NCBI GenBank assembly: GCA_016935095.1
Contig: JAFGRO010000002.1
Location: forward strand, 3,306-67,305
Origin: Candidatus Woesearchaeota archaeon
Lineage (GTDB): Archaea > Nanobdellota > Nanobdellia > Woesearchaeales > GW2011-AR15
Reading direction: 5' to 3'
DNA length: 64,000 nucleotides
Part shown: one piece after another, positions 1 to 49,200 of the stretch
How the letters are laid out: each line of letters starts with the position of its first letter
Position numbering within the stretch: the stretch's first letter is position 1
Translations under genes and position numbers: made by a program
The notes under the pieces: model-generated
The model's input: the letters and a program-made list of their open reading frames with translations, nothing else
Told to the model about the DNA's origin: nothing
Databases searched by the model: none

Positions 1-220
1 TAACTCCTGTTTTTTCAATGACCTGTTTTATCTCATTGATTCCGTCTCTATTAAAAACAGGGTTTTGCGAGATATCTTCTTCAAAAATCCATTCTATGCA
101 ATCAAGGCCAACTTTATTTGCTGAATAAAATTCATTTTTCCAGCTATCTTTAGGAAATGCCTGTATCCTGTTATTTACTGGCGGAGAAAGCCTTCCCTGC
201 ATCACACCAATTCTGTTCAT
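1..220 (-). CDS. Partial CDS (N-terminal 73 aa; continues beyond the window start). Xylose-isomerase-like TIM-barrel sugar phosphate isomerase/epimerase family; last gene of the nonulosonic acid operon.
   Basis: Reverse-complement translation starts MNRIGVMQGRLSPPVNNRIQAFPKDSWKNEFYSANKVGLDCIEWIFEED. The GxMQGRL N-terminus is typical of AP_endonuc_2/TIM-barrel sugar isomerases. Its start codon at 218-220 overlaps the upstream stop (ATGA), indicating translational coupling. Confidence 0.5.
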   Translation of the reverse strand, partial: MNRIGVMQGRLSPPVNNRIQAFPKDSWKNEFYSANKVGLDCIEWIFEEDISQNPVFNRDGINEIKQVIEKTGV

Positions 221-936
221 TTTTTATGACCTGTAGCTAAAAGCATTTTTTCTTTTGCGAATCTTATTAATTTTCTTTGTGAAGTTTCATTTCTGTCTTT
301 CCATTTTAAATAATCAGGCAATAAGCTTATTATTTTCGGAATAAAGTTTAAACAAGGATATTCCCAGATAAAAGGCAACTGCAGGAAATATTCACAGCTT
401 ACCTCTGAAAAACCATTTATCCTCATTGCATTCTGCAGTCCTTTTCTTGTAAAAGCCTTTACATGTGTGTAATCATCCCAGTAATTTTTAAACTGGCTTT
501 TCCAGTCAGGAGTCATAATAACGGCAATTCCTCCTGGTTTTAAAACCCTAAGAGCCTCTTTTAAAATATTTTCTGTATTGGATATATGCTCAATAACAGA
601 TTTTGAAAAAACAAAATCAAAGAAATTATCTTTATAAGGAAGTTTGTCTTTTTCAAGATCACAAGATTCAATCGTGAAATTTTTTAATATTTCAACACAT
701 TCTCTTCTCTTATCAATGCCATAAGCCTGGAGACCGCATCTTGAAAAACCGACCAGGTGATTGCCTTTTCCGCTGCCTATATCCAGAATCCTGCATTTCT
801 TTTTGTTTTTAATTGCATAATGCTTAAAAAATCTTTTGAAAATATAATTACATATTTTTTGGGGATAATCTCTTTTTCCGTACTCTTTCCTGAAATAATT
901 AGTTTCAAGATAGCTTGGCATTCTATAAGACCTCAT
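217..936 (-). CDS. Class I SAM-dependent methyltransferase
   Basis: SAM-binding motif I LDIGSGKGNH is followed by an acidic residue (GIDKRRE) and then a VLKPGG motif. Co-directional with and overlapping the neighbouring genes. Confidence 0.8.
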   Translation of the reverse strand: MRSYRMPSYLETNYFRKEYGKRDYPQKICNYIFKRFFKHYAIKNKKKCRILDIGSGKGNHLVGFSRCGLQAYGIDKRRECVEILKNFTIESCDLEKDKLPYKDNFFDFVFSKSVIEHISNTENILKEALRVLKPGGIAVIMTPDWKSQFKNYWDDYTHVKAFTRKGLQNAMRINGFSEVSCEYFLQLPFIWEYPCLNFIPKIISLLPDYLKWKDRNETSQRKLIRFAKEKMLLATGHKK

Positions 937-1678
937 TAACCTTTTTTCTTAATTCCCTGAATTCATCATTATTTAAAATCTTTTCAGCGTATTTTAAATC
1001 TTCAATTATATCTAAATCTGCTGTTTTATCTGTAATAAAAGCATGTATGAATTTTCCATGGAGCATGTTTGTTCTTTTAATTGTTTCTGGTTTTATTATA
1101 TCAATATATCCATTTGGTTTGAATGTAACAGGAAATTTTTGTCTTGGATAATTATGGTATTCTTCATCTTCTTTAAATTCCTGTTTACAGAAAAAGTCAT
1201 AATAGCCTCCTGCTTTTTTGAATAATTTATAAGGTGTTTCTTTTAGTATATGCGAGCTTCTCAGAGAAGTTGCTTTTTTATCAGTAATCATCTCTTCAAT
1301 TGCCTTATCTATTAGTCTGAAATCCCTGAGCGGTGTTGTAGGTCTTAGGTGTACAATCAAGTTAGGGACATAATTCTCATTTTCTTTGAGAAAATCCAGT
1401 GCATGCATTACCCATTCCCTGTCAGTTGAATAATCACCAGATATATCTACTGGTCTTAAAAAAGGAACTTCAGCTCCATATTTTTCCGCAATCTTCGCAT
1501 ATTCTTCACTGTCAGTGGAGACAATGATCCTGTTAATAAACTTAGATAATTTGGCAGCCACAACTGAATACGCAATTAATGGATGTCCTCCTAAGTTTAT
1601 GATGTTTTTATCAGTGATTCCCTTTGAGCCGCTTCTTGCGGGAATCAGTGCAAGTATTTTTAGATTTGTTTCTTTCAT
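923..1678 (-). CDS. Acylneuraminate cytidylyltransferase family (CMP-nonulosonate synthetase, NeuA/LegF-like), copy 1
   Basis: N-terminal ALIPARSGSKGITDKNI and the following fold are characteristic of CTP_transf_3 CMP-NeuAc/CMP-Kdo synthetases. Sits directly downstream of a NeuB-like synthase. Confidence 0.85.
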   Translation of the reverse strand: MKETNLKILALIPARSGSKGITDKNIINLGGHPLIAYSVVAAKLSKFINRIIVSTDSEEYAKIAEKYGAEVPFLRPVDISGDYSTDREWVMHALDFLKENENYVPNLIVHLRPTTPLRDFRLIDKAIEEMITDKKATSLRSSHILKETPYKLFKKAGGYYDFFCKQEFKEDEEYHNYPRQKFPVTFKPNGYIDIIKPETIKRTNMLHGKFIHAFITDKTADLDIIEDLKYAEKILNNDEFRELRKKVNEVL

Positions 1679-1682
1679 TTAA

Positions 1683-2714
1683 TTATAGATTATCCACTCT
1701 TCTTAGTTTTTTAATTATCGGCTTTTCCGACTCAAATATCTTTTTATTGCCGTCGCCTAAATATAAAGAGAGGAATTCAGCTTCTCTGGTAATATATTCC
1801 ATTCCCTTTTTTTCAAGGCTTGCTGCCTGGTCACTTCCATACATAGACCTGTCCAGGGTAATATGCCTTTCAACTACGCATGCTCCTAATGCGAGTGCAA
1901 CAACCGAAGGCATTATACCTGTTTCATGGCCGCTGTACCCTATAGGGCAGTTAAAGTATTTCCTGAATGTTTTTATAACATTAAGGTTCAGCTCTTCCAG
2001 CTTTGTAGGATAAGTTGATGTGCAATGCAGAATCACAAGATTTTCCTCGCCTAATATACTTAATGCTTTTTTGATTTCCTCCATTGAAGACATGCCTGTA
2101 GATAATATAACCGGCTTGCCTGTTTCTTTTATTTTATTCAGCAATGATTTATTCGTTAGAGTGGCTGAAGCAATTTTATAACATGGCACATCAAATTTTT
2201 CAAGAAAATCAACACTGCCGACATCCCAGGGAGAAGCGAACCACATTATGCCTTTTTCTTTGCAATACTCATCAATCTCTTTGTATTCTCTCTCTCCGAA
2301 TTCCAGTGCCCTTTTTAAATCACCGTTTGTAGTGCCAAAAGGACTTTCCCTTGCTCTTTCTAAGTCCTCTTTTGAATAAACAACATCAACATTCCTTTTT
2401 TGGAATTTAACAGCATGCCATCCGCAATTTACTGCCAGATCAATTAATTTTTTTGCAATATTTATATCACCGTTATGGTTAATACCTATTTCAGCAATTA
2501 AAAAAACGGGCTGCTTATGACCTATTAGCCTGTTGCCTATTTTTACTGGTTCCGGGTTTTTAATATCCAGGAATATTTTTTCATAAAAATTCCAAGCCTG
2601 GATAACTGCCTGGGTCTTATTCAGAATTAGCCCGCTGCTTTCATTGACATAGCTGCTGATCTTTTCATTTAATTCTTCAGGTATTGTTAAAGACATATAA
2701 CCTTGTTTTGGCAT
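1683..2714 (-). CDS. N-acylneuraminate-9-phosphate/nonulosonate synthase family (NeuB/LegI/PseI-like), copy 1
   Basis: FLIAEIGINHNGDINIAKKLIDLA is the NeuB TIM-barrel signature. A C-terminal SAF-like domain (LRRVDNL) is present. Same strand as and adjacent to the cytidylyltransferase. Confidence 0.9.
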   Translation of the reverse strand: MPKQGYMSLTIPEELNEKISSYVNESSGLILNKTQAVIQAWNFYEKIFLDIKNPEPVKIGNRLIGHKQPVFLIAEIGINHNGDINIAKKLIDLAVNCGWHAVKFQKRNVDVVYSKEDLERARESPFGTTNGDLKRALEFGEREYKEIDEYCKEKGIMWFASPWDVGSVDFLEKFDVPCYKIASATLTNKSLLNKIKETGKPVILSTGMSSMEEIKKALSILGEENLVILHCTSTYPTKLEELNLNVIKTFRKYFNCPIGYSGHETGIMPSVVALALGACVVERHITLDRSMYGSDQAASLEKKGMEYITREAEFLSLYLGDGNKKIFESEKPIIKKLRRVDNL

Positions 2715-2816
2715 TTTCCCACCTCTGTGTTATGTACAGTACCTTTTTTTATTTATTTAAATAATTTTCTGTCATAAATTAGTTTGTACAGTACAAGTAC
2801 CGTAATAGTTAAAGAA

Positions 2817-4454
2817 TTATCTCTTTTTTAATATGCTATTTATTGCTTTAATTAATCTGTCATTAGCTTTTCCATCTGTTTTATAACAATATTCATAAGT
2901 CTCATTTTTTCTTTTTTCATTAATAGATTCTCTGAAGTTTTCATCAAATAGCATTTTTTTAATCAATTCATTTAATTTGTCACCGTGCTTAACAATAAAG
3001 ATAGAAGATATTCCATCAAACATATTTTCAAATAAATTCTCTCCGGACTCAAATTTCAGCAAGATACAGGGCCTGTTTAAGATCATTGCCTCAATCAAAG
3101 CAGTTGAGCCGAAGCTAATTACCAAGTCAGATTCCAGAATGGAATTATATAATATATCAGCGTTTTTATTACTTAGTGAGCCAAACCTGAATCTAATGTT
3201 TTTAATCCCAATCTTTTTGATTATTTTTTTATGCAAAGATATGTCTTTTTCAAGAGGATGTGTTTTAATGATAATCTCGGAATCAGGAAACTCTTTTAAA
3301 TTGGAAAACAGATAAAATAAATATTTTTCAAACTTTTCTTTAGGAAGAACTTTAAACTGCACTAGCGGTGAAGATAAGATTAATATTTTTTTTTTCCCTT
3401 TCTTTTTTTCTTTCTTTTTTATATAATTGCAGATACGCTCATTAATAAAAGAGCCAGTAACAAATATATTTTCAGGTTTCCATTCAGAGTATTTGATCAG
3501 TCTTTTTTTATCATTCGGGCCCCATACAGCAATCTTCGAGCTTGGAAAAAATTCAAAATTTATTCCTGTTAAATTATATGCATGAACTAAAAATAAAGAA
3601 GGTATTCCAGAAGAATGGGCAGCAGCAACCGCACACCTTTCCTGCAGACCGGAAACAACCAGTACAAGATCCAGTTGCTCTTTTTTAATAATATCTTTGA
3701 TTGTGTAATAATAAAGCAGGTAAATGAACAATATTTGTTTTGAGAATAATAAATCCAGTTCTTCATTCACAAACTTCAATAAGGATTCTTTTTTATAAGC
3801 AAATAGTCTCTCTTTAATCTTTTTATCTAATCTTTTCCATTTCCCGGAATATTTTTTTGCTTCTTTTAATGAGCGATAAAATGTTTCTTTGGAAATATAC
3901 TTATCAATCCAGTGATAATACCCTGAGGAAAGAGGCTTTTCAAATGGATTAGTGATTCTTGTTCCGATTACAGGAATTAATTCAATTTTATTGTCCTTTT
4001 CAAGTCTCCTGAATAATTCTCCAATTCTGAAAATATCAATTATTTTTCTTTTTTCATCCAGTTTAATCTGGTCAGTATGCGCTAGAAGCATGACCCTTTT
4101 CTTTTTTGTCTTTTTGCTTTTTTTTTTAACATCCTTTTTTTTAATTAACCTGATATAGTATGTGAAAATAATCACGCTAAGAAAGATTCTGAGGCTGAAT
4201 GAGGCTAGTTTCATCATAAGCCTATGAAAAAAAGAATAATCTCTTTTATCTAAAATTGCATTAAACCGTTTTGTGATTTCAAAGAAAGGAAGCGGAAAGC
4301 AGCCGGCATTAAACCTGAATGAATGAAACCACCAGATTGGGATGTTATCATCAATTTTAAAGGAGTCATCAAAACTCTGTTTATTGTTGATTTTTTTTTT
4401 TGACCAAACAAGTAGTGTCTCTTCAATGTTTTTTAAGGTGTCTCTTGTTTTCAT
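2817..4454 (-). CDS. Membrane-anchored GT-B-fold glycosyltransferase-like protein (TagF/KpsS 'capsule polysaccharide biosynthesis'-like). Candidate CMP-nonulosonate transferase. Paralog of 15985..17610.
   Basis: Hydrophobic helix near residue 90 (LASFSLRIFLSVIIFTYYIRLI). Poly-Lys linker KKKDVKKKSKKTKKKR. CAVAAAHSSGIPSLFLVHAYN motif. C-terminal GT-B-like nucleotide-binding region (VISFGSTALIEAMILNRPCILL). Family assignment not confirmed. Confidence 0.5.
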   Translation of the reverse strand: MKTRDTLKNIEETLLVWSKKKINNKQSFDDSFKIDDNIPIWWFHSFRFNAGCFPLPFFEITKRFNAILDKRDYSFFHRLMMKLASFSLRIFLSVIIFTYYIRLIKKKDVKKKSKKTKKKRVMLLAHTDQIKLDEKRKIIDIFRIGELFRRLEKDNKIELIPVIGTRITNPFEKPLSSGYYHWIDKYISKETFYRSLKEAKKYSGKWKRLDKKIKERLFAYKKESLLKFVNEELDLLFSKQILFIYLLYYYTIKDIIKKEQLDLVLVVSGLQERCAVAAAHSSGIPSLFLVHAYNLTGINFEFFPSSKIAVWGPNDKKRLIKYSEWKPENIFVTGSFINERICNYIKKKEKKKGKKKILILSSPLVQFKVLPKEKFEKYLFYLFSNLKEFPDSEIIIKTHPLEKDISLHKKIIKKIGIKNIRFRFGSLSNKNADILYNSILESDLVISFGSTALIEAMILNRPCILLKFESGENLFENMFDGISSIFIVKHGDKLNELIKKMLFDENFRESINEKRKNETYEYCYKTDGKANDRLIKAINSILKKR

Positions 4455-4478
4455 ATTATTATTTCAAATATTCTTTTG

Positions 4479-6227
4479 TTAATGATATTCATTATTCTTC
4501 AATATTGAATCCAGAAACTTTGAATTATTATAGATGGCATTAGTAAAATCATCTATTTTTCCGGAATTAAATGCTTCAATAATCTCAAGAATTCCCTGTT
4601 CAGCCTTTAGTTTAGTCCTGAAATTTAATTCTTTTTTAATTTTATCAAAATTCACTCTATAGTCTCGTTTATCAACATCTTTAAGCGAAATGTTCATCTT
4701 TGAGCTGGGAATTAATTCTTTTATTTTTTCTCCTATTTCAATAATTTTATAATTCTCTTCATTAGAGCCAACATTAAAAATTTCTCCTTTTACTTTGTTA
4801 ATAGGCGCTTCCAGAACTTTGATGTATGCGTCAGCAGCATCTTTTACATGAAGCAAGGGTCTCCATTGCTCTCCTCCGAAAACTGAAAATTCTCCTTTTT
4901 TTATGGCCAACGCTGTCAATATGTTCAAAACCAAATCAAATCTTGGCCTGTGAGAGAATCCGTAAAGTGTGCCCATCCTCATGATTGTAGGAGAAAAGTT
5001 TTCATCAGTTAATTCAAATAAACCTTTTTCACTGTTAATCTTGTCTCTTGCATATAACGAGACAGGGCTTAATTCTGAGTCTTCTGTTAAAATATCCTGG
5101 CCCTGCCCATAGACACTGCAGCTGGAGGCAAAAATAAACCTGTTAATCTGGTTGTATTTGCATATCTGAGCTAAATTTAAGGTTGCAAGATAATTCTGCT
5201 CAATTGTTTTTAAGGGGGATAAACCACATGCAGGATCTCCCACTATTCCTGCCAGATGAATCACAGCATTAACATCTCTTATTGATTTTGTGATATCTTC
5301 AATATGCCTTACATCACCTGTAACCAACCTGAAATTCGGATGATTTTCCAATTCACTGAGAGACTCTTTCCCGTATAATAATCTGTCCAGAACAACAACC
5401 CAGTATCCTCTTTTTAGGAGTTTTCTGACCAAGACCGAGCCCAAATACCCTGCGCCTCCTGTCACAAGAACAGAATTTATTTTTTTGTTTTTATAAGTTG
5501 AATAATTACTAAGATAATCATAGTAACCTTTGTTATAAACCTGTTTAAGTGCAGTTACCCTGGCTTCTTTATCTAAAACAGGGATTTTAAGAAATTTATT
5601 ATGGGGGATTAATCTAATTAGCTCTTCATTATCCATATTTTCTGTTCCGGTGACTGGATTTTTATTCATAATTTTGCCAATAGGCTCTTCATGACTTACT
5701 CCGGACAGAATTCCCTCTCTTATATCATTATCTGTAACAAGTCCTTTTAACCTTTCATTATCATCAACAATTAATCCAATCCCTAACCCGGATAAATCAA
5801 TCTTTTTCATTACAGATTTTAAAGAGTCATTTTTATTTACAAACACTTTCTCAAGTTCTTTGCCTTTTATTGAAACAGGCAACTCACTAAACTTGATAAA
5901 AATGTCAGCAACTTTATTGTCATCATCCACTAGGATAAGTTTTCCGACAATATCTCTTTTTTCAGTTAGTTCAATAAGTTCCTGTTTAGAAGAATTAATG
6001 TGGGCTGTAACTGGATTAAAATTAGCAATGCTTTTCAGCTTTTTGTTAATGTCATTATCTTTTATAAGGCCTCTTCTTAAATCCCCTGCGCTTACAATGC
6101 CTTTTAGCTTTTTATCCTGGTCAACTAATATGAGAATGCCTAACCCTGTCTCATTTAATATGCCTAGTCCTTTTTCAATAGTTTCATCCTCATTAACAAG
6201 AAGGGAATCTATAATGCCCTCATTCAT
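4479..6227 (-). CDS. Fusion protein: N-terminal tandem CBS domains plus C-terminal NAD-dependent sugar-nucleotide 4,6-dehydratase/epimerase (PseB/LegB/CapD-like)
   Basis: The N-terminal ~240 aa carry repeated CBS-like segments (VTAHINSSKQELIELTEKRDIVGKLILVDDDNKV; LKGLVTDNDIREGIL). The C-terminus has the Rossmann motif VLVTGGAGYLGSVLVRKLL and an SDR extended-family fold. Confidence 0.85.
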   Translation of the reverse strand: MNEGIIDSLLVNEDETIEKGLGILNETGLGILILVDQDKKLKGIVSAGDLRRGLIKDNDINKKLKSIANFNPVTAHINSSKQELIELTEKRDIVGKLILVDDDNKVADIFIKFSELPVSIKGKELEKVFVNKNDSLKSVMKKIDLSGLGIGLIVDDNERLKGLVTDNDIREGILSGVSHEEPIGKIMNKNPVTGTENMDNEELIRLIPHNKFLKIPVLDKEARVTALKQVYNKGYYDYLSNYSTYKNKKINSVLVTGGAGYLGSVLVRKLLKRGYWVVVLDRLLYGKESLSELENHPNFRLVTGDVRHIEDITKSIRDVNAVIHLAGIVGDPACGLSPLKTIEQNYLATLNLAQICKYNQINRFIFASSCSVYGQGQDILTEDSELSPVSLYARDKINSEKGLFELTDENFSPTIMRMGTLYGFSHRPRFDLVLNILTALAIKKGEFSVFGGEQWRPLLHVKDAADAYIKVLEAPINKVKGEIFNVGSNEENYKIIEIGEKIKELIPSSKMNISLKDVDKRDYRVNFDKIKKELNFRTKLKAEQGILEIIEAFNSGKIDDFTNAIYNNSKFLDSILKNNEYH

Positions 6228-7417
6228 TTGCAGGCCTCTTTAACTTCAGTTTTGAATTTATGTATCCTGATAATAGCTTTACATATTTTGTTAATTGTCT
6301 CTTCATCCATGAAATTATAGATAGGAAGACAAATCACATTATTTGAAACAAGTTCAGTATTTTTTAAATCATTATATTCTGCTTTTTCTTTATAAGCATC
6401 AAGTTTATGCATCGGAGGATAAAAATAAAATTTTGTCATAATATTTTCAGCATTCAATGCTCTTGCTAATTCATACCTGTTTAATCCAAATTCATTTTCA
6501 TTGACAGTAAATCCAAAATCCTTGTGTGTGGAAACATTTCCCTCTTTAATAATCTGGAAATTGATGCCCTGAATGTTTTTTAGTTCCTTTTTAAATTTAT
6601 CAACATAACTGTTCCTGTTTTCAACATATTTATCTAAATCTTTTAATTGGTGCAATCCTGTGACTGCGTTGATTTCGCTCATCCTTGCATTTAAACCAGG
6701 CCTCTTGCAGGAATAATCAGGATAATTGCCATAGTTCCTGTCAATTTTTAACATTTCAGCTAATTCAGTGTTATTTGTGGCTACTATTCCTCCTTCTATT
6801 GTCGTCAAAAGCTTTGTCGGGCTGGCACTGAAAACCTCAACATCACCAAACTGCCCGATTTTTTTTCCCTGATAAGATGAACCTAATGCATGGGCACAGT
6901 CAAAGATTAATTTTAAGTTATGTTTGCTGGCAATTTCCTGTAATCTCTCAATATAACAAGGGTTTCCATACATATGTACAGCAATAATTGCCTTTGTTTC
7001 AGGACTGATATTTTTTTCAACTTCTTCAGGTGAAATAGTAAATGTTTCCCTGTCAATATCAACAAATCTGATTTTGCAGTTATTCCAGTATGCGGCATGG
7101 ACTGTTGCAGAAAAGGTAAATGCAGGAACTAGCACTTCTGAATTTCTTAAACCAAGTGCCTGCATACTTAAAATTAAGCCGGATGTACAGGAAGAAACGC
7201 CTATAACATGTTTAACACCAATATAGTTTTCCAGTTCCTCTTCAAATTTCTTTAGTTTAATATCAACAGAAGTAAGCATATTGCTGTTTAAAACAGCGCT
7301 AATGTCTTTCAGCAATTCTTTTTCAACATATTTATCAACATTGGGCCTTATAATCGGCAGTCTTTTATCAAAAACAGCTCTCCCATTTAAAATTGCAGGT
7401 TTATTGTCCATTTTCAT
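6224..7417 (-). CDS. DegT/DnrJ/EryC1/StrS-family PLP-dependent sugar aminotransferase (PseC/LegC-like)
   Basis: Aminotransferase class V-like fold with the PLP-lysine context FSASPTKLLTT. The ORF track starts it at 7477, but the MKMDNK start at 7417 avoids a 77-nt overlap with the upstream gene. Confidence 0.85.
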   Translation of the reverse strand: MKMDNKPAILNGRAVFDKRLPIIRPNVDKYVEKELLKDISAVLNSNMLTSVDIKLKKFEEELENYIGVKHVIGVSSCTSGLILSMQALGLRNSEVLVPAFTFSATVHAAYWNNCKIRFVDIDRETFTISPEEVEKNISPETKAIIAVHMYGNPCYIERLQEIASKHNLKLIFDCAHALGSSYQGKKIGQFGDVEVFSASPTKLLTTIEGGIVATNNTELAEMLKIDRNYGNYPDYSCKRPGLNARMSEINAVTGLHQLKDLDKYVENRNSYVDKFKKELKNIQGINFQIIKEGNVSTHKDFGFTVNENEFGLNRYELARALNAENIMTKFYFYPPMHKLDAYKEKAEYNDLKNTELVSNNVICLPIYNFMDEETINKICKAIIRIHKFKTEVKEACK

Positions 7418-9217: not shown

Positions 9218-9228
9218 TTATTCCACTC

Positions 9229-11582: not shown

Positions 11583-11592
11583 TTTTTCACCT

Positions 11593-15953: not shown

Positions 15954-15984
15954 ATTATTTAAATGCAATCATGTTCGTCTTAAA

Positions 15985-34485: not shown

Positions 34486-34488
34486 TAT

Positions 34489-37241: not shown

Positions 37242-37580
37242 ATGAAAATGAATATAATCCAATTATTTGCAATATTATTCAGCTTATTTGCGGCAAGCAG
37301 GGTTTTTTTAAGGACAAAAGACAAAAAACTTACAATACCTGAATTTGTTTTCTGGATGTTTATATGGGGCTCGTTGATAATAACTGCATTTATTCCTGAT
37401 GTGACTAGCATGATAGCTAATTTTGTAGGTATAGGAAGAGGCGTGGATATTATTATCTACATGAGTATAGGAACAGTATTTTATCTCATTTTCAGGCTTT
37501 ATGTTAAATTAGAGGATGTAGAGCGGGAACTCACTGTTGTTATAAGAGAGCTGGCTTTTATGAAGAAAAGGAAAAAATGA
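37242..37580 (+). CDS. Small membrane protein, DUF2304-like (commonly paired with GT2 enzymes)
   Basis: 112 aa with 3 TM helices and a charged C-terminal tail. 1-nt spacing from the upstream GT2 and 4-nt overlap with the downstream GT4. Confidence 0.55.
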   Translation: MKMNIIQLFAILFSLFAASRVFLRTKDKKLTIPEFVFWMFIWGSLIITAFIPDVTSMIANFVGIGRGVDIIIYMSIGTVFYLIFRLYVKLEDVERELTVVIRELAFMKKRKK

Positions 37581-42241: not shown

Positions 42242-42293
42242 ATAAATTTCACAAAACTTAAAAAAAAGACAGTAATTTAAATAATTTACTGGC

Positions 42294-43430
42294 ATGGGAA
42301 AGAGAATTAAAGTTGTTTATTTAGGAACCTGGGAAAAGAAATATTCAAGAAACAGGATAATTATAAATGGTTTAAAGCGAGCAAATGCAGATGTTGAATT
42401 ATTTCACATTGAGACAGTATGGAATAAGAAAACACATAAAACAAAACTTTCAAAAATCCGGATTATACTTGATCTAATTAAATCTTATTTTTTGATGATT
42501 TATTATTTTTTTAAGATTAGAACTTATGATTACATTGTTATTGGCTATCCTGGCTGGTTTGATGTTCCTTTAACATGGCTGCTGAATAAATTCAGGCCAG
42601 GAAAATTAGTTTTTGACTCTTATTTTTCTATTTATGATTCAATAGTCAATGACAGGAAATCAGTAAGAGCAAAGTCTCTTTACGCGAGATTATTGTTCTT
42701 TACTGATAAGATCTGCTGCAGGCTGGCAGATATAATCTTGCTGGACACAGATGAGCACATAAATTACTTTGTTAATACTTTTAAAATCAGAAAAAACAAA
42801 TTTATCAGGGTATTTATAGGAGCTGATGACAAGATATTTTATCCGAAAAAAAGAAAAAAGAAGAATAAAAGATTCAAGGTTATTTTTCACGGCAAGTTTA
42901 TACCTTTGCAGGGTCTTTCCTATATAATAGAAGCGGCAAAGCTTCTTGAAAAACAGGATATTGAATTTGAGATTATCGGGGATGGCCAGTTAAAAGAGGA
43001 TATTGTTAAATTAAGTAAAAAACTAAATACAAATAATATCCATTTTACAGATTTTGTTCCGGTTACAGAATTACCCGGGCTTTTATTTAAAGCAGATGTT
43101 GGTTTGGGTATATTCGGAGATACAGAAAAAGCAAAGCGTGTAATCCCCAATAAGGCATTTGAAATCCTGGCAATGAAGCTGCCATTGATTACAGGAGATT
43201 CTCCTGCTGCCAGAGAAGTCCTTGAGAATAAAAAGCACTGCATACTCTGCAAGATGGCTGATCCGGATGCACTGGCTAAATCCATTTTATTATTGAAAAA
43301 TAACCCTTTGCTGAGAAAAAAAATCAGTATAAACGGGCACAGGTTATTCAGAGAGAGATTTTCAGTAAATGCAATAGGCAGAGATTTAAAAAAAACCCTG
43401 GTTTGTCTTTGCAATAAAAAAGATTTATAA
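42294..43430 (+). CDS. GT-B glycosyltransferase, family 4-like
   Basis: C-terminal half VGLGIFGDTEKAKRVIPNKAFEILAMKLPLITGDSPAAREVL is Glycos_transf_1-like. Divergent from the epimerase. Confidence 0.75.
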   Translation: MGKRIKVVYLGTWEKKYSRNRIIINGLKRANADVELFHIETVWNKKTHKTKLSKIRIILDLIKSYFLMIYYFFKIRTYDYIVIGYPGWFDVPLTWLLNKFRPGKLVFDSYFSIYDSIVNDRKSVRAKSLYARLLFFTDKICCRLADIILLDTDEHINYFVNTFKIRKNKFIRVFIGADDKIFYPKKRKKKNKRFKVIFHGKFIPLQGLSYIIEAAKLLEKQDIEFEIIGDGQLKEDIVKLSKKLNTNNIHFTDFVPVTELPGLLFKADVGLGIFGDTEKAKRVIPNKAFEILAMKLPLITGDSPAAREVLENKKHCILCKMADPDALAKSILLLKNNPLLRKKISINGHRLFRERFSVNAIGRDLKKTLVCLCNKKDL

Positions 43431-45146: not shown

Positions 45147-46085
45147 TTAATTTTTAGAATAATTAATAGTTTCTCTTATTTTATAACTTTGTATGTTTTC
45201 TTTTTTTGAAATAACCAGTTCGCCAATTAGACCAATGCCGGTTAGCTGCACTCCAAGAATAATTAACAATACACCAAGAATTAACATTGCAAGGTGAGTT
45301 GCAAAAGCTTCTTTGAGGAAAATATTACAATATAAAACATAGAGTTCAGCAATAAAACCAAGAATAAATGAAAACATTCCCAAACCTCCAAATAAATGAA
45401 GGGGCCTTTGATTAAAATTTGTTAAAAATTTAACTGTTAAAAGATCTAATGCGCCTGTAATAATTCTTTTTGAACCATATTTGCTTTTGCCGAATCTTCT
45501 TTCATGATGCTTAACCTTTGTTTCACCTACTGAAAAACCGTCCCTTGAAACAATTGCAGGGATATATCTATAAAGATCACCGTAGATATTAAGGCTTTTT
45601 GCCACTTTTGCTTTCATTGCTTTGAAACCAGAATCATGGTCATGTAATTTAAGACCAAAAAACAGATAATTAAGAAAATTAAAGATCTTTGAGGCAATTA
45701 TCTTATGCAATGGGTCTTTTCTTTCAAATTTCCAGCCCATTACAAGGTCATATTTTTTTATACCTTCCAGGAATTTCGGAATCTCTCTGGGATCATCCTG
45801 TAGATCAGCATCCATTGTAATTACAATATCCCCTTTGATGGCATTAAAACCGGCCATATATGCAGCTGATTTTTTAAAATTCCTTAGAAAACTTATGCAC
45901 TTTACTTTTTTGTCTTTTTTAGCTATCCTTTTTATTAATTCAAAAGAATTGTCTGTTGAACCGTCATCAACAAAAATAATCTCATAATCTTTCCTGATTT
46001 TAGATAAAACACTGTTTAGTTTATTATATAATAAATCAATATTTTTTTTTTCATTATATACGGGAATAACAACTGAAAGCTCCAT
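45147..46085 (-). CDS. Family 2 glycosyltransferase with C-terminal TM helices: dolichol/polyprenol-phosphate hexose synthase-like (DPM1/ArnC/AglD-like)
   Basis: LSVVIPVYNEKKNIDLL..EIIFVDDGSTDNS..TMDADLQDDP are ArnC/DPM1 motifs. Two C-terminal TM helices. Confidence 0.85.
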   Translation of the reverse strand: MELSVVIPVYNEKKNIDLLYNKLNSVLSKIRKDYEIIFVDDGSTDNSFELIKRIAKKDKKVKCISFLRNFKKSAAYMAGFNAIKGDIVITMDADLQDDPREIPKFLEGIKKYDLVMGWKFERKDPLHKIIASKIFNFLNYLFFGLKLHDHDSGFKAMKAKVAKSLNIYGDLYRYIPAIVSRDGFSVGETKVKHHERRFGKSKYGSKRIITGALDLLTVKFLTNFNQRPLHLFGGLGMFSFILGFIAELYVLYCNIFLKEAFATHLAMLILGVLLIILGVQLTGIGLIGELVISKKENIQSYKIRETINYSKN

Positions 46086-46133
46086 TTTTAAATAAGAATT
46101 GTTATTTTTATTATAAATCTTTTTGAAAATATT

Positions 46134-47309
46134 CTAATTACATTTATCTAGAAGCCTTTTATAGACTTTAATCGTTTCAAGACACATTCTTTTTATTGTA
46201 TAAAACTCAGCTGTTTTTTCTCCTTGTTTAATAATCTTTTTCCTTAATTTATTGTTATTTATTAATCCAAGTGTATATTCTGCAAATTTATTATAATCTC
46301 CTGGATCAACAACAAAACCGTTTATGCTGTTTTTTATCAGCTCTTTTGTGCCGCCCACATTTCCTCCGATACATGGAATCTTCGAGACCATTGCCTCTAG
46401 GAACACAATGCCGAATCCCTCTATCAGAGAGGGCATAGCAAATATATCTGATCTTTGGAAGTAACTCAGGGTTTTTTCATATTCCTGCAGGCCTAGAAAC
46501 TCAAATTTGTCCAGAACATTATACTTCCTGCATAAATCCTTCAGTTTATTTTCATTCGGATCTTTTCCAATAACATAGACTTTAATATCCGGAATACTCT
46601 TTTCAATTAATGGAACTGCTTTTATTATTGTAGGAAGGCCTTTTCTCTGATAATTCCCGCCTACAAATAATATTCTCTTGCCAGATTGCTTTATTTTTTT
46701 GAGTTTTTTAATCCTATTTAAATTGATTCCATAGTAGATTGTTCTTAGCTTATTTTTGCTGATTTTGTATACTTTGTTCATTATATTACCAATATAATCT
46801 GTGTTGGTAATAACATAGTCTAATCTCGGAAGGGAAATTCTTTCCATAAAATTTACAAAATTATAATAAGCCCATCTTTTTATCCAGTCTCTATAGAATC
46901 TTTTATAGTAAAAAGGGTTTAAGCTTGCACTGGCAAAATAATAGTCATTCATCGTGCCAATGACCTTTGTTGAGTTTTTTTTCCTGCATAAGTTATAGAA
47001 CAGAGATTCTCTTGCATCAGTAAAATGAATTATGTCAAACTTTCCTTTTTTTTCAAGTTTTTTTAATAACTTAGCGAATTCATATGAAAGGCTGAACCAA
47101 GAACCGTGAGTTATATCAATCCTGGATTTTTTTACTCTATAAATGCATATGTTTTTTTCTTTTTTGAAAACCGAATCATCCGGGCAGATGACTGTTTTTT
47201 TAAATGAATCATTTGAAAGATTATTTATCAGATTAGTAGAATACGTTCCGATGCCTGATCTATTTACACCGTATTGCTGGGTAACAAAACAGATTTTTAT
47301 TTTTTTCAT
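46134..47309 (-). CDS. GT-B glycosyltransferase, family 4-like
   Basis: FAMPSLIEGFGIVFLEAMVSKIPCIGGNVGG is the EX7E motif. Confidence 0.8.
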   Translation of the reverse strand: MKKIKICFVTQQYGVNRSGIGTYSTNLINNLSNDSFKKTVICPDDSVFKKEKNICIYRVKKSRIDITHGSWFSLSYEFAKLLKKLEKKGKFDIIHFTDARESLFYNLCRKKNSTKVIGTMNDYYFASASLNPFYYKRFYRDWIKRWAYYNFVNFMERISLPRLDYVITNTDYIGNIMNKVYKISKNKLRTIYYGINLNRIKKLKKIKQSGKRILFVGGNYQRKGLPTIIKAVPLIEKSIPDIKVYVIGKDPNENKLKDLCRKYNVLDKFEFLGLQEYEKTLSYFQRSDIFAMPSLIEGFGIVFLEAMVSKIPCIGGNVGGTKELIKNSINGFVVDPGDYNKFAEYTLGLINNNKLRKKIIKQGEKTAEFYTIKRMCLETIKVYKRLLDKCN

Positions 47310-47359: not shown

Positions 47360-47380
47360 TTCATATTTTTTCATATTAAT
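47360..47380. promoter_or_regulatory. Tandem 10-bp repeat TTCATATTTT/TTCATATTAA about 55 nt upstream of the third B12-radical-SAM gene. Same motif as at 14351-14370.
   Basis: Direct sequence comparison: TTCGTATTTT x2 upstream of 14508 against TTCATATTTT x2 upstream of 47431. Confidence 0.45.
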
Positions 47381-47430
47381 TTTGAAAACTATAAAAAACT
47401 ATTTAAAAAACAATCTGTTTCTTATCAATC

Positions 47431-49164
47431 GTGATTTTAGTGAGGGGAACTATTAAAAATAAAACTACAAAAATTCTCCTGGTTAAAGCCCCGGATGTAT
47501 ATACAAAATACGGCCGCGGAGGCGAGATATGGCTTCCTATAGAGTTAGCCGAGTTAGCTGCGTATGTTTTAAAACATAATAAAAATGTGAATATTGAGAT
47601 ATTTTCCCCCCATCTGGAAAAACTGCCTTTTAGAAAAGTAGTTAACAAATGCTGTTCTGGAAATTATGATATAATAGGCATTTCATATATGACGGTGTCT
47701 GCAGATTATGCTTACCAGCTCTCTTCTTTTATAAAAAAATTTACCAAGTCCCTGCTTGTTCACGGAGGCACACATGTAACTTTATGCCCTAATGAAGTAA
47801 TTGAACATTGCGATATAGGCATTATTGGCGAAGGCGAATTGACTTTTTCGGAGATAATTGAAAAATATCAGCAAAAAGCATTAACTCTTTCAAAGATAAA
47901 AGGAATTGTTTACAAGGAAAATAATAATATAAAAATAACCCCTTCAAGGGAATTTATTAAAGATATGGATGAAATGCCCTTTCCAAGATATGACCTTCTG
48001 CCAATGGATAAATATGATAAGCCGCTGCATTATACCGGTGAGAGGATGATTGATATTATGGAATCCCGCGGTTGTCCCTATAATTGCTCATTTTGCGTTT
48101 CACCAACACACTGGAGAAGAAGATTAAGAATGCACTCTCCACAGTATATTATAAACCATATTAAATTGTTGATTAAGAATTATAATATAACTAATTTCCA
48201 TTTCCACGGAGATAATTTCATGATTCAGCCCGGATTTGTGAAAAGATTATGCGACTTGATAATAAAAAACAAACTAAAAATCAAATGGTGTGCATTAACA
48301 AGACCCGAGCATGTTATTAAACATAAAAATTTATTACCTTTAATGAAAAAAGCCGGTTGTTTTGGCATTGAAATCGGAATAGACAGTGCAGAAGAAAACG
48401 CACTGGCTGCAACAAATAAGGGACAGGATTTAAGCACAGCATTAAATGCCTTAAAAATTCTTAAAAAAAAGGGAATGATTCTGTTATATACCTTAATGGG
48501 CTTTAATCCGGAAGAAACAATCTATGGCTATTATAAGCAGCAGATAGTTGTTTTCAAAAAAATATTTGGCTTTGATACTATTAAGGGCGGGCAGGCATCT
48601 ACGCCGTACCCTTCAACGGATTATGGAATAAACTATGGCAGATATGGTGTTTTATTGGCTCATACATGGGATGAATATGACCATTCTCTAATCCCTTTTA
48701 TTCCTAATTCATTATTAGACGGAAAACCCCTGAGAACCAAAAAAAAGTTATGGTTAAACGATTATTATATAATTATAGGTGGTTATTATAATTGGAGGGT
48801 TGATATATTCCCTGTATATAATTCATTGTTTACAAGATTCTTTCTATCATTGGATTATATGAGGAGACTAAAGAGATTTTACTCGCTTTGTTTTGGCAAG
48901 TATACTCTTAGGGAGATTGCAACAATTATTGAAAACCACACCGGAATGAAACATGAAGAATCTATGAGATTCTGTGGGTTCTGTACTTTAATTCTTGCTA
49001 AAATGGGCCTTATAACTGATGCTAACCTTGACCCAATAAAAAGAGCTGAAATAAAGCCGATTTATAAGGGATTTTCTGGAAATTTGAAATCCTTGTTCAT
49101 CTACATATTAATGGCAGTGAGATTTTATTTCGGGAATAAGGAAAGGATTAAAGGAAGAATGTAA
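47431..49164 (+). CDS. Cobalamin-binding radical SAM protein (third paralog); GTG start per ORF track
   Basis: B12-binding-like N-terminal domain (ILLVKAPDV...DIIGISYMT...LLVHGGTH). Radical-SAM motif SRGCPYNCSFC. Paralogous to 14508..15953 and 28388..29935. Confidence 0.8.
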   Translation: MILVRGTIKNKTTKILLVKAPDVYTKYGRGGEIWLPIELAELAAYVLKHNKNVNIEIFSPHLEKLPFRKVVNKCCSGNYDIIGISYMTVSADYAYQLSSFIKKFTKSLLVHGGTHVTLCPNEVIEHCDIGIIGEGELTFSEIIEKYQQKALTLSKIKGIVYKENNNIKITPSREFIKDMDEMPFPRYDLLPMDKYDKPLHYTGERMIDIMESRGCPYNCSFCVSPTHWRRRLRMHSPQYIINHIKLLIKNYNITNFHFHGDNFMIQPGFVKRLCDLIIKNKLKIKWCALTRPEHVIKHKNLLPLMKKAGCFGIEIGIDSAEENALAATNKGQDLSTALNALKILKKKGMILLYTLMGFNPEETIYGYYKQQIVVFKKIFGFDTIKGGQASTPYPSTDYGINYGRYGVLLAHTWDEYDHSLIPFIPNSLLDGKPLRTKKKLWLNDYYIIIGGYYNWRVDIFPVYNSLFTRFFLSLDYMRRLKRFYSLCFGKYTLREIATIIENHTGMKHEESMRFCGFCTLILAKMGLITDANLDPIKRAEIKPIYKGFSGNLKSLFIYILMAVRFYFGNKERIKGRM

Positions 49165-49200
49165 ATAGTTTTTAAAACAACTTACCTTTCCTATATTAAT

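Follow-up and report, generated by a model that had tools for sequence, protein, structure and literature searches.

In Haloferax volcanii, the final mannose of the N-glycan is added after AglB by the AglD/AglR/AglS system, in which a cytoplasmic GT2 glycosyltransferase attaches one sugar to dolichol phosphate; after flipping of this lipid-sugar, a polytopic Dol-P-sugar-dependent transferase adds the sugar outside, onto the glycan that has already been transferred (PMC3871713). The DUF2304 proteins GacJ of S. pyogenes and Rv3632 of M. tuberculosis stimulate a GT2, and a GT-C enzyme transfers HexNAc from lipid phosphate outside the cell (bioRxiv 10.1101/180810). The legionaminic acid pathway has been characterised in the archaeon Halorubrum (PMC6137143). 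We compared these systems with a 64-kb stretch of a Woesearchaeota contig (hereafter the window), which carries a chromosomal cluster of surface-sugar genes that is large but in essence ordinary.

Extent and gene content of the cluster

ORF calls on the window place 46 genes across positions 217-49164, nearly without spacer (Table 1). By profile, 33 of these encode enzymes of sugar activation, tailoring or transfer, with a glycosyltransferase tally of five GT2, five GT-B enzymes of GT4/GT1 type and three GT-C. Eight more encode methyltransferases or radical-SAM enzymes, whose link to glycans is by position only, and five have no evident role in glycan synthesis: the Lrp/AsnC regulator g13, LplA g40, the DUF362 protein g34 and the small membrane proteins g31 and g39. 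The first-pass annotation, which had counted about 45 consecutive genes devoted to sugars, was therefore slightly too generous; the nonulosonate, heptose and lipid-linked-pentose modules that it named are all present (Pfam, NCBIfam), and the abrupt end that it saw at radB and rps2 is a genuine boundary, with g47 matching Rad51/RadB and g50 Ribosomal_S2, followed by thiolase, ECH, 3HCDH and OFOR genes (Pfam). Position 1 marks no such limit and is simply where the window starts. An ORF there is cut off, and a Logan contig (L017) that is 100% identical over 1-1479 carries AP_endonuc_2, GFO_IDH_MocA, SDR (adh_short) and SIS_2 genes in the 3.2 kb further left; the cluster thus extends at least 3.2 kb beyond.

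Table 1. Features of the cluster and its flanks, with coordinates in the window
Feature	Position	Strand	Basis
Further sugar-pathway gene, 5' part (xylose-isomerase-like TIM barrel, AP_endonuc_2)	1..216	-	ORF reaching window end
Nonulosonic-acid block g01-g12	217..13721	-	Pfam, NCBIfam
Lrp/AsnC-family regulator g13	13711..14220	-	HTH_AsnC-type, AsnC_trans_reg
Tailoring block g14-g20	14508..23381	.	Pfam
GDP-D-glycero-D-manno-heptose-type block g21-g26	23417..28040	-	Pfam, NCBIfam
B12-binding radical SAM enzyme g27	28388..29935	-	Pfam, NCBIfam
Operon g33-g28	30170..35361	-	Coordinates, Pfam
g29, soluble GT2 of AglJ/ArnC/PgfS type	30873..31595	-	NCBIfam
g30, 8-TM protein, tentative small GT-C	31602..32531	-	Homologues, AF2, Foldseek
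g31, orphan 117-aa protein, 3-4 TM helices	32535..32888	-	TM prediction
g32, WWDYG-less GT-C glycosyltransferase of STT3/PglB/AglB-like fold	32869..34485	-	Family profile, AF2, Foldseek
g33, UbiA-family polyprenyl-phosphate phosphoribosyltransferase-like	34489..35361	-	NCBIfam, PDB 8j8j
Operon g35-g38: PpgS/GacI-like GT2, DUF2304 (GacJ/Rv3632-like), two GT4	36564..39984	+	NCBIfam, Pfam
g40, lipoate-protein ligase LplA, no glycan gene	40479..41237	-	Pfam LplA-B_cat, BPL_LplA_LipB
g41 SDR epimerase/dehydratase (LegB/GalE-like) and g42 GT-B (WcaI-like)	41234..43430	.	NCBIfam
g43, GT-C of PMT/PMT_2 (ArnT/Pmt-like) type, at least 10 TM helices	43455..45146	+	Pfam PMT and PMT_2, TM prediction
g44 ArnC/PgfS-like GT2 with two C-terminal TM helices, and g45 GT4	45147..47309	-	NCBIfam
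g46, B12-binding radical SAM enzyme, final cluster gene	47431..49164	+	Pfam, NCBIfam
Right flank: RadB-like recombinase g47, methyltransferase-like g48, EamA/DMT transporter g49, ribosomal protein S2 g50	49201..52233	.	Pfam

Within the 33-gene set, the nonulosonate block supplies two sets of NeuB-type synthase (g03, g09) and CMP-transferase (g02, g12), a NeuC-type hydrolysing 2-epimerase (g08), a CBS-SDR dehydratase/epimerase (g05), a DegT aminotransferase (g06), a formyltransferase-like protein (g07), a WbuX amidotransferase (g10) and a WbuZ/AglZ-type HisF-HisH fusion (g11); the block also holds a methyltransferase and a candidate nonulosonate transferase, g04, whose C-terminal half matches the BFO_1060-family glycosyltransferase and TIGR04396 (NCBIfam). 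NCBIfam scores here reach 455 bits for NeuC (cutoff 236), 375 for WbuX (cutoff 203), 399.2 for NeuB (cutoff 399.65), 276 for WbuZ, 188 for HisH, and 125 and 157 for the PseF-like matches. The tailoring block consists of a B12-binding radical SAM enzyme (g14), a paralogue of g04 (g15; 25% identity over 502 aa, E 5e-42), a radical SAM/SPASM protein (g16), an AsnB-type amidotransferase (g17; 498 bits on the AsnB profile), a Trm112-methyltransferase (g18), a GT2 with two C-terminal TM helices (g19) and a Methyltransf_24 protein (g20).

The 33 genes further include a DPPR-synthase-like UbiA protein and a five-gene GDP-heptose set. The heptose block encodes an FSA/transaldolase, a GmhB-like phosphatase, a GmhA-like SIS isomerase, an HddA-like GHMP kinase, an HddC/ManC-like nucleotidyltransferase and an SDR epimerase/dehydratase. 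Although the best NCBIfam scores (FSA 227, GmhB 134, GmhA 94, HddA 162 and HddC 113 bits) all lie below equivalog cut-offs, the heptose gene set is contiguous and complete. Sugar identities are approximate throughout, since most pathway enzymes of the cluster score below these cut-offs.

Membrane enzymes and the search for an exporter

Profile, motif and tblastn/phmmer searches of the window agree with the earlier description of a very large glycan-biosynthesis cluster that lacks MOP flippase, Wzy, AglB and mobile-element genes. No gene of the window matched Pfam Polysacc_synt, MurJ, MatE, Wzy_C, STT3, integrase or transposase; the motif W[WFY]D[YWFN]G occurs in no frame of the 64 kb; and AglB, MOP-flippase and YfhO probes from related loci returned nothing below E 0.5 in the window by tblastn and phmmer. 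The only polytopic proteins of at least 400 aa are g32 and g43, both GT-C. The first-pass annotation had listed export and transfer components as missing, yet g43, which matches Pfam PMT and PMT_2, is a transfer enzyme in plain view. It had also suggested that the missing parts were hidden in the polytopic proteins g32 and g30 or encoded elsewhere, which proves half right: g32 is predicted to supply transfer, but neither protein is clearly Wzx or Wzy, and neither is an exporter, g32 being a GT-C and g30 tentatively one as well.

The case for g32 is chiefly structural. Its AF2 model (pLDDT 92) retrieves OST catalytic subunits at ranks 1-19 of a Foldseek search of the PDB (E down to 8.5e-9, TM-score 0.50-0.61 on query), the top 26 fold matches are all GT-C enzymes, and MATE, MurJ and ABC transporters have probabilities below 0.15. 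The model thus identifies g32 as a GT-C glycosyltransferase, not an exporter. Its family is small and archaeal (143 clusters among 1.84 billion representatives), with D41, P77-P78, H195 and R426 near-invariant; of 50 members, 15 match Pfam PMT_2, six DUF6541 and one STT3. At the level of sequence, the tie to AglB is weak: g32 itself matches neither Pfam STT3 nor STT3-PglB_core and gives 0 matches in NCBIfam, including the named Agl models; the family profile reaches E 4.6e-8 against A. fulgidus AglB in a match with high compositional bias; and in hhalign the probability of a match to the Methanosarcinales AglB of a related locus is 0.65%. Homologues of g32 coexist with a true AglB in relatives, which indicates that g32 is a distinct enzyme.

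The operon containing g32 encodes, in order, the UbiA protein g33, g32, the small membrane protein g31, the 8-TM protein g30, the GT2 g29 and a methyltransferase, g28, with intergenic gaps or overlaps of at most 44 nt. The three best NCBIfam matches of g33 are all DPPR synthase (197 bits, full length; cutoff 234), and residues 3-279 align with 15-291 of decaprenyl-phosphate phosphoribosyltransferase (PDB 8j8j; E 1.4e-24); its predicted product is a lipid-linked pentose phosphate. For g30 we found only eight homologues, all archaeal or metagenomic, which share D44 and a YRILTP motif and adjoin PMT_2 and AftA_N GT-C genes. The model of g30 has a pLDDT of 65.5, and its Foldseek matches with probability of at least 0.9 are all GT-C, none at E <=1e-3; g30 is therefore only tentatively a small GT-C. 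No family match and no homologue besides itself was found for g31, which may be an accessory or flippase-type subunit.

Each GT-C of the cluster lies near a predicted GT2 polyprenyl-phosphate-sugar synthase, one of them in a GacI/GacJ-like pair, and together with the DPPR-synthase-like UbiA this arrangement points to transfer on the outside of the membrane being encoded in the cluster. The synthases include the candidate g29, the candidate g44, with full-length scores of 173 bits on ArnC and 161 on PgfS, and g35, which is full-length on PpgS (189 bits, cutoff 370; next AglJ, 115 bits) and is followed by g36 (85 bits on DUF2304).

Assembly, related loci and origin

The best explanation, which we consider moderately probable, is a native chromosomal supercluster in a Woesearchaeota genome for cell-surface glycan synthesis with a three-component membrane assembly. 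Cytoplasmic modules would make CMP-nonulosonates of legionaminic/pseudaminic type with formyl and acetamidino tailoring, GDP-heptose and phosphoribosyl-polyprenyl-phosphate. On the cytoplasmic face, the GT2 enzymes (g29, g35 with its DUF2304 partner g36, g44 and possibly g19) and g33 would charge polyprenyl or dolichyl phosphate with single sugars; given the archaeal context, the carrier is presumably dolichol phosphate. The lipid-linked monosaccharide would then be flipped, perhaps by the small membrane proteins g31, g36 or g39 or by EamA g49; no flippase of a known family was found in the window, so this step is one that we infer outright. Finally g32, g43 and probably g30 would move the sugar onto an acceptor outside, each presumably served by its neighbouring GT2.

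Related loci support these pairings. The block from 30.9 to 46.1 kb recurs in Woesearchaeota and Methanosarcinales genomes, and in eight of nine related loci the g32 homologue has a g29-like GT2 gene directly upstream, making g29 a conserved partner of g32-family genes. Orthologues of g43 (39-46% identical), g35 and g36 are neighbours in three loci (L009, L014, L015), in one of which (L009) the g41 and g42 orthologues also adjoin each other. The UbiA protein g33, g30 and g31 have no counterpart in any of the related loci, so their functional tie to g32 rests on operon structure in one genome.

A native origin is part of the favoured explanation. The first-pass annotation spoke of an island, implying acquisition, and clusters for surface glycans are textbook examples of flexible islands. 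An island gained recently, or one that varies between strains, exchanged horizontally and kept under phage or host-recognition pressure, would suit the near-orphan status of g30, g31 and g32, the occurrence of a cassette in both Woesearchaeota and Methanosarcinales MAGs, with 30-60% identity at the amino-acid level, and the branching of the source run's short-read unitig graph within the cluster at 1450-1479 and 41711-41740. However, GC is 0.321 in the cluster and 0.336 in the 14.8-kb flank, neither gene GC nor GC3 differs between the two (Mann-Whitney p = 0.33), and tetranucleotide use is not clearly unlike that of the flank (chunk permutation p = 0.055, with three flank chunks only), so that nothing in the composition marks a recent acquisition. 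Nor did searches of the window find an integrase, transposase, tRNA, Rfam match, or flanking or direct repeat. About 15 kb is a cassette conserved across two archaeal lineages, and its GC of 0.42-0.55 in relatives against 0.32 here implies that any transfer was old and is fully ameliorated. We regard a recently acquired or strain-variable island as unlikely.

Under the native-cluster explanation, an oligosaccharide would still require a flippase and AglB, both of which are probably encoded elsewhere in this genome; placement of these genes away from such clusters is common in archaea. In five of nine related loci, the g32 homologue has a true aglB (Pfam STT3 and STT3-PglB_core, WWDFG motif) less than 10 kb away, and in L009, L014 and L015 this aglB directly adjoins the g44 orthologue (43-61% identity). 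Alternatively, glycans could be built solely by sequential outside transfer from lipid-phosphate monosaccharides, with no canonical OST or MOP flippase, and the g32 family or g43 could glycosylate protein (O-linked or non-sequon) or lipid directly. In bacteria and eukaryotes, GT-C enzymes of PMT type carry out protein O-glycosylation, the cluster holds three GT-C and four or five predicted lipid-phosphate-sugar synthases, and neither the 64 kb nor the 3.2 kb further left contains an AglB or MOP gene. However, the five enzymes of GT4/GT-B type and the two putative transferases for nonulosonates act cytoplasmically and would require export, the same cassette adjoins aglB in relatives, and the sequence covered is part of one contig of the genome. 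To our knowledge, aglB is nearly universal in archaea and often unlinked from agl genes. An AglB-independent route thus seems improbable.

Least plausible is a capsule or exopolysaccharide locus of Wzx/Wzy or ABC-transporter type with the polytopic proteins as polymerase and exporter: in its size and its combination of GT2 and GT4 the cluster is reminiscent of bacterial cps and O-antigen loci, and profile searches notoriously struggle to detect Wzy proteins, but the GT-C fold of g32, which lacks a transporter or Wzy/WaaL match, largely refutes its reading as polymerase or exporter, the better g30 matches are GT-C (MurJ probability 0.07 in Foldseek), and ABC transporter, PCP, OPX and initiating phosphoglycosyltransferase families are absent from the window (Pfam).

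Comparison with known systems

The first-pass view that glycans of this complexity were unreported was an argument from silence, since characterised counterparts exist for every module, several from archaea (Halorubrum legionaminic acid, AglXYZ-type acetamidino enzymes and Haloferax AglD/AglR/AglS). Unlike the known nonulosonate, acetamidino and GDP-heptose pathways, most members here are sub-equivalog, the synthases and CMP-transferases are duplicated, and the dehydratase has an N-terminal tandem CBS region. Nevertheless, relative to legionaminic acid synthesis in Halorubrum PV6 and AglXYZ/WbuXYZ, NeuC and WbuX score above their cut-offs, NeuB is at its cut-off, and the HisF/H fusion matches both WbuZ and AglZ. 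The GmhA/HddA/GmhB/HddC-like set is complete relative to the HddA/HddC GDP-heptose route, and the BFO_1060 match of g04 recalls the Pse/Leg transferase of Tannerella forsythia.

Among the membrane enzymes, g32 lacks the WWDYG motif of AglB/STT3/PglB and is 538 aa long, compared with 669-983 aa for the AglB ORFs of related loci. It shares with them a conserved Asp in the first external loop, which in g32 is accompanied by a PPL motif, and a short alpha/beta domain that follows the final TM helix, and its "W..W..NTP" stretch aligns to A. fulgidus AglB. The mycobacterial Rv3806c (PDB 8j8j) and AftA/Emb-type arabinofuranosyltransferases offer a parallel for g33, which aligns full length and is the first gene of an operon that also encodes two polytopic proteins of GT-C type; the fold matches of g32 include AftA (E 2.9e-4), and g30 relatives adjoin AftA_N-domain proteins. 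Unlike in that system, no DprE1/DprE2-type epimerase or PAP2 phosphatase was seen, so that ribose is a possible pentose in place of arabinose; g33 also falls short of its cutoff.

Although g35 scores well below its equivalog cut-off and no Wzx-like GacK was found, the succession of a ~225-aa GT2 with PpgS as best match (g35) and a 112-aa DUF2304 protein (g36) mirrors GacI/GacJ and PpgS/Rv3632, and the presence of a g43-like GT-C beside their orthologues in orthologous loci extends the likeness to GacL. Finally, whereas the window contains neither an AglR/Agl15-type MOP protein nor aglB, the g29/g32 pair, found near aglB in five of nine related genomes, fits the logic of Haloferax AglD/AglR/AglS.

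Gene content and limits of the cluster

Our results best support a model in which the large glycan gene cluster of this Candidatus Woesearchaeota contig is a native surface-glycan supercluster. The 64-kb window (about 32% GC) contains 63 defined genes, numbered here in order, and the first 46 of these make up the cluster, which profile matches divide into nonulosonic-acid, tailoring, heptose and membrane-assembly blocks. A first-pass annotation had described about 45 consecutive sugar genes with no export, oligosaccharyltransferase (OST) or mobile-element genes among them. The observation is real, as judged by profile, motif and probe searches, but no glycan role is evident for 5 of the 46: g13 (an Lrp/AsnC regulator), g40 (LplA), g34 (DUF362) and two small membrane proteins, g31 and g39. 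Both g13 and g40 sit inside the glycan cluster, and g13 is a possible regulator of the operons of g12 and g14, which are divergent. Operon 1 (g33, g32, g31, g30, g29 and g28) is packed, and operon 2 comprises g35-g38.

On the right, the cluster ends at housekeeping genes as had been stated: a RadB-like gene (g47) is followed by EamA and ribosomal protein S2, and these by thiolase, enoyl-CoA hydratase (ECH), 3-hydroxyacyl-CoA dehydrogenase (3HCDH) and 2-oxoacid:ferredoxin oxidoreductase (OFOR). The flank, which holds two OFOR sets as well as a ketopantoate-reductase-like protein, an Fe-alcohol dehydrogenase and a B12-binding mutase subunit, is by predicted function a gene set for fermentation of the butyrate type, here in a DPANN genome. 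The left end at position 1, in contrast, is merely the window edge: a 100% identical Logan contig (run SRR13394437) carries the cluster on for at least 3.2 kb, adding AP_endonuc_2, GFO_IDH_MocA, SDR and SIS_2 genes. Two pairs of ORFs overlap at their starts; gene calls on the Logan contigs start later for g06 (407 aa), g07 (220 aa) and g28 (240 aa), and these later starts are probably the correct ones.

Features of the glycan cluster and its flank, in window coordinates
Feature	Genes	Position	Strand	Remarks
Glycan cluster	g01-g46	217-49164		46 genes
Nonulosonic-acid block	g01-g12			profile matches
Tailoring block	g14-g20			profile matches
Heptose block	g21-g26			profile matches
Membrane-assembly block	g27-g46			profile matches
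Unitig ends		1450-1479; 41711-41740		30-nt overlaps
Candidate nonulosonate transferase	g04	2817-4454	-	about 540 aa
CBS-SDR fusion	g05	4479-6227	-	
Overlapping ORFs		6224-7477 / 7401-8075		77-nt overlap
Lrp/AsnC regulator	g13	13711-14220	-	
B12-binding radical SAM enzymes		14508-15953; 28388-29935; 47431-49164		
Candidate nonulosonate transferase	g15	15985-17610	-	about 540 aa
SPASM radical SAM enzyme		17665-18687		
Overlapping ORFs		30170-30916 / 30873-31595		44-nt overlap
Tentative small GT-C	g30	31602-32531	-	
Predicted STT3-like GT-C	g32	32869-34485	-	
LplA	g40	40479-41237	-	
Predicted PMT/PMT_2 GT-C	g43	43455-45146	+	
EamA/DMT-family transporter		50705-51568	-	10 TM helices; two genes past the cluster
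Housekeeping flank		52567-63677	+	

A NeuC-type hydrolysing epimerase (455 bits; cutoff 236), two NeuB-type synthases (399.2 bits, against a cutoff of 399.65, and 272 bits) and two PseF-like CMP-transferases (157 and 125 bits, under the cutoff of 206) occur together, a combination that points to a nonulosonic acid of Leg, Pse or Neu type. The nonulosonic block also encodes a CBS-SDR dehydratase, a DegT aminotransferase and a formyltransferase-like protein. Another of its proteins matches WbuX (375 bits; cutoff 203), and a fusion of HisF and HisH also matches the archaeal AglZ model. Each NeuB/CMP-transferase set is adjoined by one member of a paralogous pair, g04 and g15 (25% identical across 502 aa; E 5e-42). 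Because the C-terminal half of g04 matches TIGR04396 and the BFO_1060 family of Tannerella forsythia pseudaminic/legionaminic-acid derivative transferases, and g15 is its paralogue, both are candidate archaeal nonulosonate transferases. The heptose block holds a full FSA/GmhA/HddA/GmhB/HddC-like set plus an SDR, all scoring under the equivalog cut-offs, and the tailoring block holds B12-binding and SPASM radical SAM enzymes, an AsnB-type amidotransferase, methyltransferases and a GT2 glycosyltransferase with two C-terminal TM helices.

Two further features of these modules were observed. In g05, a KpsF/GutQ-like tandem CBS region (residues ~17-227) is fused N-terminally to an SDR dehydratase/epimerase domain (252-554), an architecture that is unusual among LegB/PseB-type enzymes. 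Radical SAM enzymes are dispersed in the cluster, three of them B12-binding and one of the SPASM type; their best matches, all far under cut-off, are lipid- or hopanoid-modifying or C/P-methylating enzymes, and they could modify sugars or the lipid carrier.

Predicted membrane-bound transferases and lipid-phosphate donors

Only two polytopic proteins of at least 400 aa are encoded in the cluster, g32 and g43. No Pfam family matches g32 at E values up to 5, and no NCBIfam model matches it. An exhaustive HMMER scan found its family to be small (143 clusters among 1.84 billion representatives, mostly 530-560 aa), and the nearest homologue is 45% identical. Among 50 aligned members, 15 match PMT_2, 6 match DUF6541 and 1 matches STT3, and the family profile matches Archaeoglobus fulgidus AglB (E 4.6e-8), a match that carries strong compositional bias. 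For the AF2 model of g32 (pLDDT 92; pTM 0.91), PDB matches ranked 1-19 are all OST catalytic subunits (STT3A/B, yeast Stt3, PglB and AglB; E 8.5e-9 to 8e-6), followed by ArnT, DPY19, AftA and ALG12, with transporters at probabilities below 0.15. The protein has 9-11 TM helices, a near-invariant D41 (at least 90% conserved) just after TM1, near-invariant P77-P78 and a conserved PPL at 77-79. GT-C enzymes usually place the catalytic Asp in the first external loop, which is where D41 of g32 lies. Thus, a polytopic N-terminal domain, a conserved acidic residue in the first loop and several GT-C fold matches place g32 in the GT-C superfamily, and its model has an STT3-like TM core.

We rejected the identification of g32 as a true AglB: it has no WWDYG (the aligned region reads F..G...Q) and no STT3 profile match, hhalign against the genuine AglB of a related locus gives a probability of 0.65%, and its homologues co-occur with AglB in relatives. 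A Wzx or Wzy identity was rejected on fold. By its predicted structure, g32 is instead a GT-C glycosyltransferase of STT3-like architecture, neither an OST nor a flippase. The first-pass annotation had sought the missing export and transfer parts either among the polytopic proteins or elsewhere in the genome; the first option appears correct in that g32 is a transfer-type GT-C by fold, but not as to a flippase or polymerase.

The g43 protein matches Pfam PMT and PMT_2 only, and on this match its predicted class is plainly that of a PMT/PMT_2 GT-C; a sequence search against the PDB returned nothing significant. Eight homologues of g30 were found, in archaeal glycan clusters next to PMT_2 and AftA_N proteins, and a first-loop D44 and a YRILTP motif are invariant across seven sequences. 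Its AF2 model is weak (pLDDT 65.5), and the matches at a probability of at least 0.9 are all GT-C proteins (PglB, PIG-U, Pmt4, ALG9 and ALG3; best E 0.046), with PimE at a lower 0.72, so that g30 may tentatively be modelled as a small GT-C. For g30 a Wzx or Wzy identity is unlikely, since its better fold matches are GT-C proteins and no WaaL or Wzy structure is listed among them, a weak result for this model. A homologue search with g31 returned nothing besides g31 itself, which makes it an orphan.

Several genes would supply lipid-phosphate sugars. The g33 protein aligns over its full length (residues 3-279; E 1.4e-24) with the solved decaprenyl-phosphate phosphoribosyltransferase PDB 8j8j. 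Its top three NCBIfam matches are DPPR synthase models (197, 147 and 111 bits), with the named UbiA prenyltransferase subfamilies at 59 bits or less and the generic UbiA family prenyltransferase model NF006088 at 169 bits; its best score, 196.9 bits, is under the DPPR equivalog cut-off of 234. Three GT2 proteins, g29, g35 and g44, align at full length with lipid-phosphate-sugar synthase models, yet under the equivalog cut-offs: g35 matches PpgS best (189 bits, full length), with AglJ next (115 bits); g44, which has two C-terminal TM helices, matches ArnC (173 bits) and PgfS (161 bits); and g29 matches AglJ, PgfS and ArnC. Starting 1 nt past the end of g35, g36 matches DUF2304 (84.9 bits; cutoff 25.5), and the g35/g36 pair is conserved in three related loci (L009, L014 and L015). 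This arrangement resembles GacI/GacJ and PpgS/Rv3632, in which a GT2 also adjoins a DUF2304 protein. In these systems, the small protein (GacJ or Rv3632) stimulates a lipid-phosphate-HexNAc synthase whose product is used outside the cell by a GT-C (GacL) (bioRxiv 10.1101/180810). Two features of a three-component lipid-phosphate-sugar system (a GtrB/GacI-type GT2, a small membrane partner and a GT-C) are thus predicted from profiles, a polyprenyl-phosphate GT2 and a DUF2304 partner beside it; for a dedicated flippase (GtrA, GacK/Wzx or ArnE/F), no GtrA, MOP or SMR-type match was found in the window. The remaining candidates are the unassigned small membrane proteins g31 and g39 and, two genes past the cluster, g49, an EamA/DMT-family transporter for which the related loci showed no orthologue. 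ArnE/ArnF-type subunits of lipid-sugar flippases belong to the EamA/DMT superfamily, as do nucleotide-sugar transporters.

Searches for the flippase, OST and polymerase bear out the reported lack of a MOP flippase, Wzy, AglB, integrase or transposase in this stretch. No window gene matches the Pfam models for Polysacc_synt, MurJ, MatE, Wzy, STT3, integrases or transposases, whereas the AglB proteins of L009 and L015 score 99.9 bits on STT3. EpsG, Wzy_C and WaaL likewise match no gene in Pfam, and no WaaL or Wzy structure is found among the fold matches of g30 and g32, which reach MATE and MurJ folds at probabilities of at most 0.07; Wzy proteins are hard to detect. The motif W[WFY]D[YWFN]G is absent from all six frames of the 64-kb window, and in five related loci the same search detects WWDFG. 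By tblastn or phmmer, probes from related loci for AglB, the MOP flippase and YfhO gave nothing below E 0.5 against the window (the L004 MOP probe had a best E of 0.52). On the motif scan and these probes, a hidden aglB or a flippase remnant in the window was rejected.

Related loci and the origin of the cluster

Searching 185,579 species genomes for the g32 family (with seven closer sequences) yielded 10 archaeal loci, assigned to Woesearchaeota, GW2011_AR15, unclassified archaea and "uncultured Methanosarcinales", with GC contents of 0.26-0.55. When all window proteins were compared with them by tblastn, a recurrent cassette emerged, made up of g44-like GT2 (43-61% identity), GT4, g43-like GT-C (39-46%), g35-like (48-54%), g36-like (36-40%), g37-like, g29-like GT2, g32-like GT-C, GT2, g38-like, g42-like (about 40%) and g41-like. 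In 8 of 9 loci, the gene immediately upstream of the g32 homologue is a g29-like GT2; g33, g30 and g31 were found in none. About 10 genes of the cassette are common to Woesearchaeota (L007, L011 and L014) and Methanosarcinales-labelled MAGs (L008, L009 and L015), at 30-60% amino acid identity and with blocks of gene order kept; either an ancient horizontal transfer involving DPANN archaea and methanogens or mis-binning might account for this. Also near the cassette, in L013 (18429-20804) and L014 (947-3364), are YfhO-type GT-C proteins of about 800 aa, a further lipid-phosphate-sugar-dependent transferase type in these archaeal clusters.

The orphan genes, the sharing of the cassette across phyla and the two unitig breaks with 30-nt overlaps would fit a flexible or acquired island, as the region had been named. 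We consider this unlikely. GC content is 0.321 in the cluster and 0.336 in the flank, with no difference in GC or GC3 gene by gene (p = 0.33), and a permutation of tetranucleotide chunks, of which the flank supplied only three, yields p = 0.055; against a 14.8-kb flank these comparisons have low power. No tRNA, Rfam match, or integrase or transposase family was found in the window, and no long repeats flank the region. Since the composition of the cluster is close to that of this small reference, nothing marks it as a recent acquisition. RadB, used as an anchor for sister genomes in JGI metagenomes, recovered 41 loci at no more than 44% identity whose neighbourhoods share nothing with the window, the housekeeping side included, and no close sister genome was found (best g32 homologue 45% identical, best RadB 44%). 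The Logan unitigs that end inside the cluster indicate branching of the assembly graph, and strain variants may occur at these points.

In relatives, the cassette is closely associated with aglB. A protein of about 980 aa directly upstream of the g44 orthologue in L009 (335-3286) and L015 (355-3291) is a true AglB, with STT3 (99.9 bits) and STT3-PglB_core matches, and ORFs bearing WWDFG are also found in L008 (~20312), L010 (~21330) and L014 (~21011). Overall, 5 of 9 loci have aglB no more than 10 kb away from the g32 homologue, three of them directly beside the g44 orthologue, so that elsewhere the cassette is an agl-type N-glycosylation neighbourhood. The window has no aglB at the equivalent place; in the source genome it is either no longer adjacent or missing. 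A bolder proposal is that the g32 family is an undescribed class of STT3-fold GT-C enzymes of about 540 aa, confined to archaea across the 10 recovered genomes. This class would have lost WWDYG, the sequon-reading motif, and would always have a dedicated GT2 lipid-phosphate-sugar synthase as its partner; it would often travel with aglB but here operate in a 50-kb cluster without it. In the strongest form of the proposal, the genome lacks AglB and g32 or g43 attaches glycans to surface proteins or lipids independently of an OST. We regard this proposal as quite improbable, and an AglB-independent system as such as highly improbable. Genes for AglB and flippases are commonly unlinked, and unlinked genes most simply explain their absence from the window. 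A Wzx/Wzy capsule locus is largely refuted by the profile and fold searches and is extremely improbable. The claim of missing machinery therefore holds for the flippase and AglB genes, which are absent from the window, but not for transfer enzymes, which are present as GT-C proteins (g32 and g43, and tentatively g30), and with aglB and flippase genes commonly unlinked the puzzle largely dissolves.

A proposed route for glycan assembly

On the model of a native supercluster for surface glycans, the cytoplasm would be where nucleotide sugars and lipid-phosphate monosaccharides are made, GT-B enzymes would assemble a lipid-linked oligosaccharide, and GT-C enzymes would add several sugars outside, from flipped lipid-phosphate donors. 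The sugars named here and their acceptors are putative, and a flippase and aglB are presumably encoded elsewhere in the genome. The cluster provides a gene-level prediction of glycan content (nonulosonate, heptose and a lipid-derived pentose) and predicts that GT-C enzymes add much of the glycan outside the membrane. DPANN archaea such as Woesearchaeota are attached to or dependent on other cells, and their surface glycans therefore likely mediate recognition; we know of no surface glycan characterised from DPANN archaea.

No new type of system emerges from the cluster. What is moderately new is g32 as the representative of an uncharacterised, aglB-associated, WWDYG-less STT3-fold family; the gain is a modest one, a fold and a likely role for an unannotated archaeal membrane-protein family tied to aglB and a dedicated GT2, together with a glycosylation cassette of about 10 genes common to Woesearchaeota and Methanosarcinales genomes. 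In Haloferax, AglD, AglR and AglS act after AglB, and sugars are added outside from flipped lipid-phosphate donors (PMC3871713). The external GT-C addition proposed here resembles both this AglD/AglR/AglS pathway and the GacI/J/K/L system.
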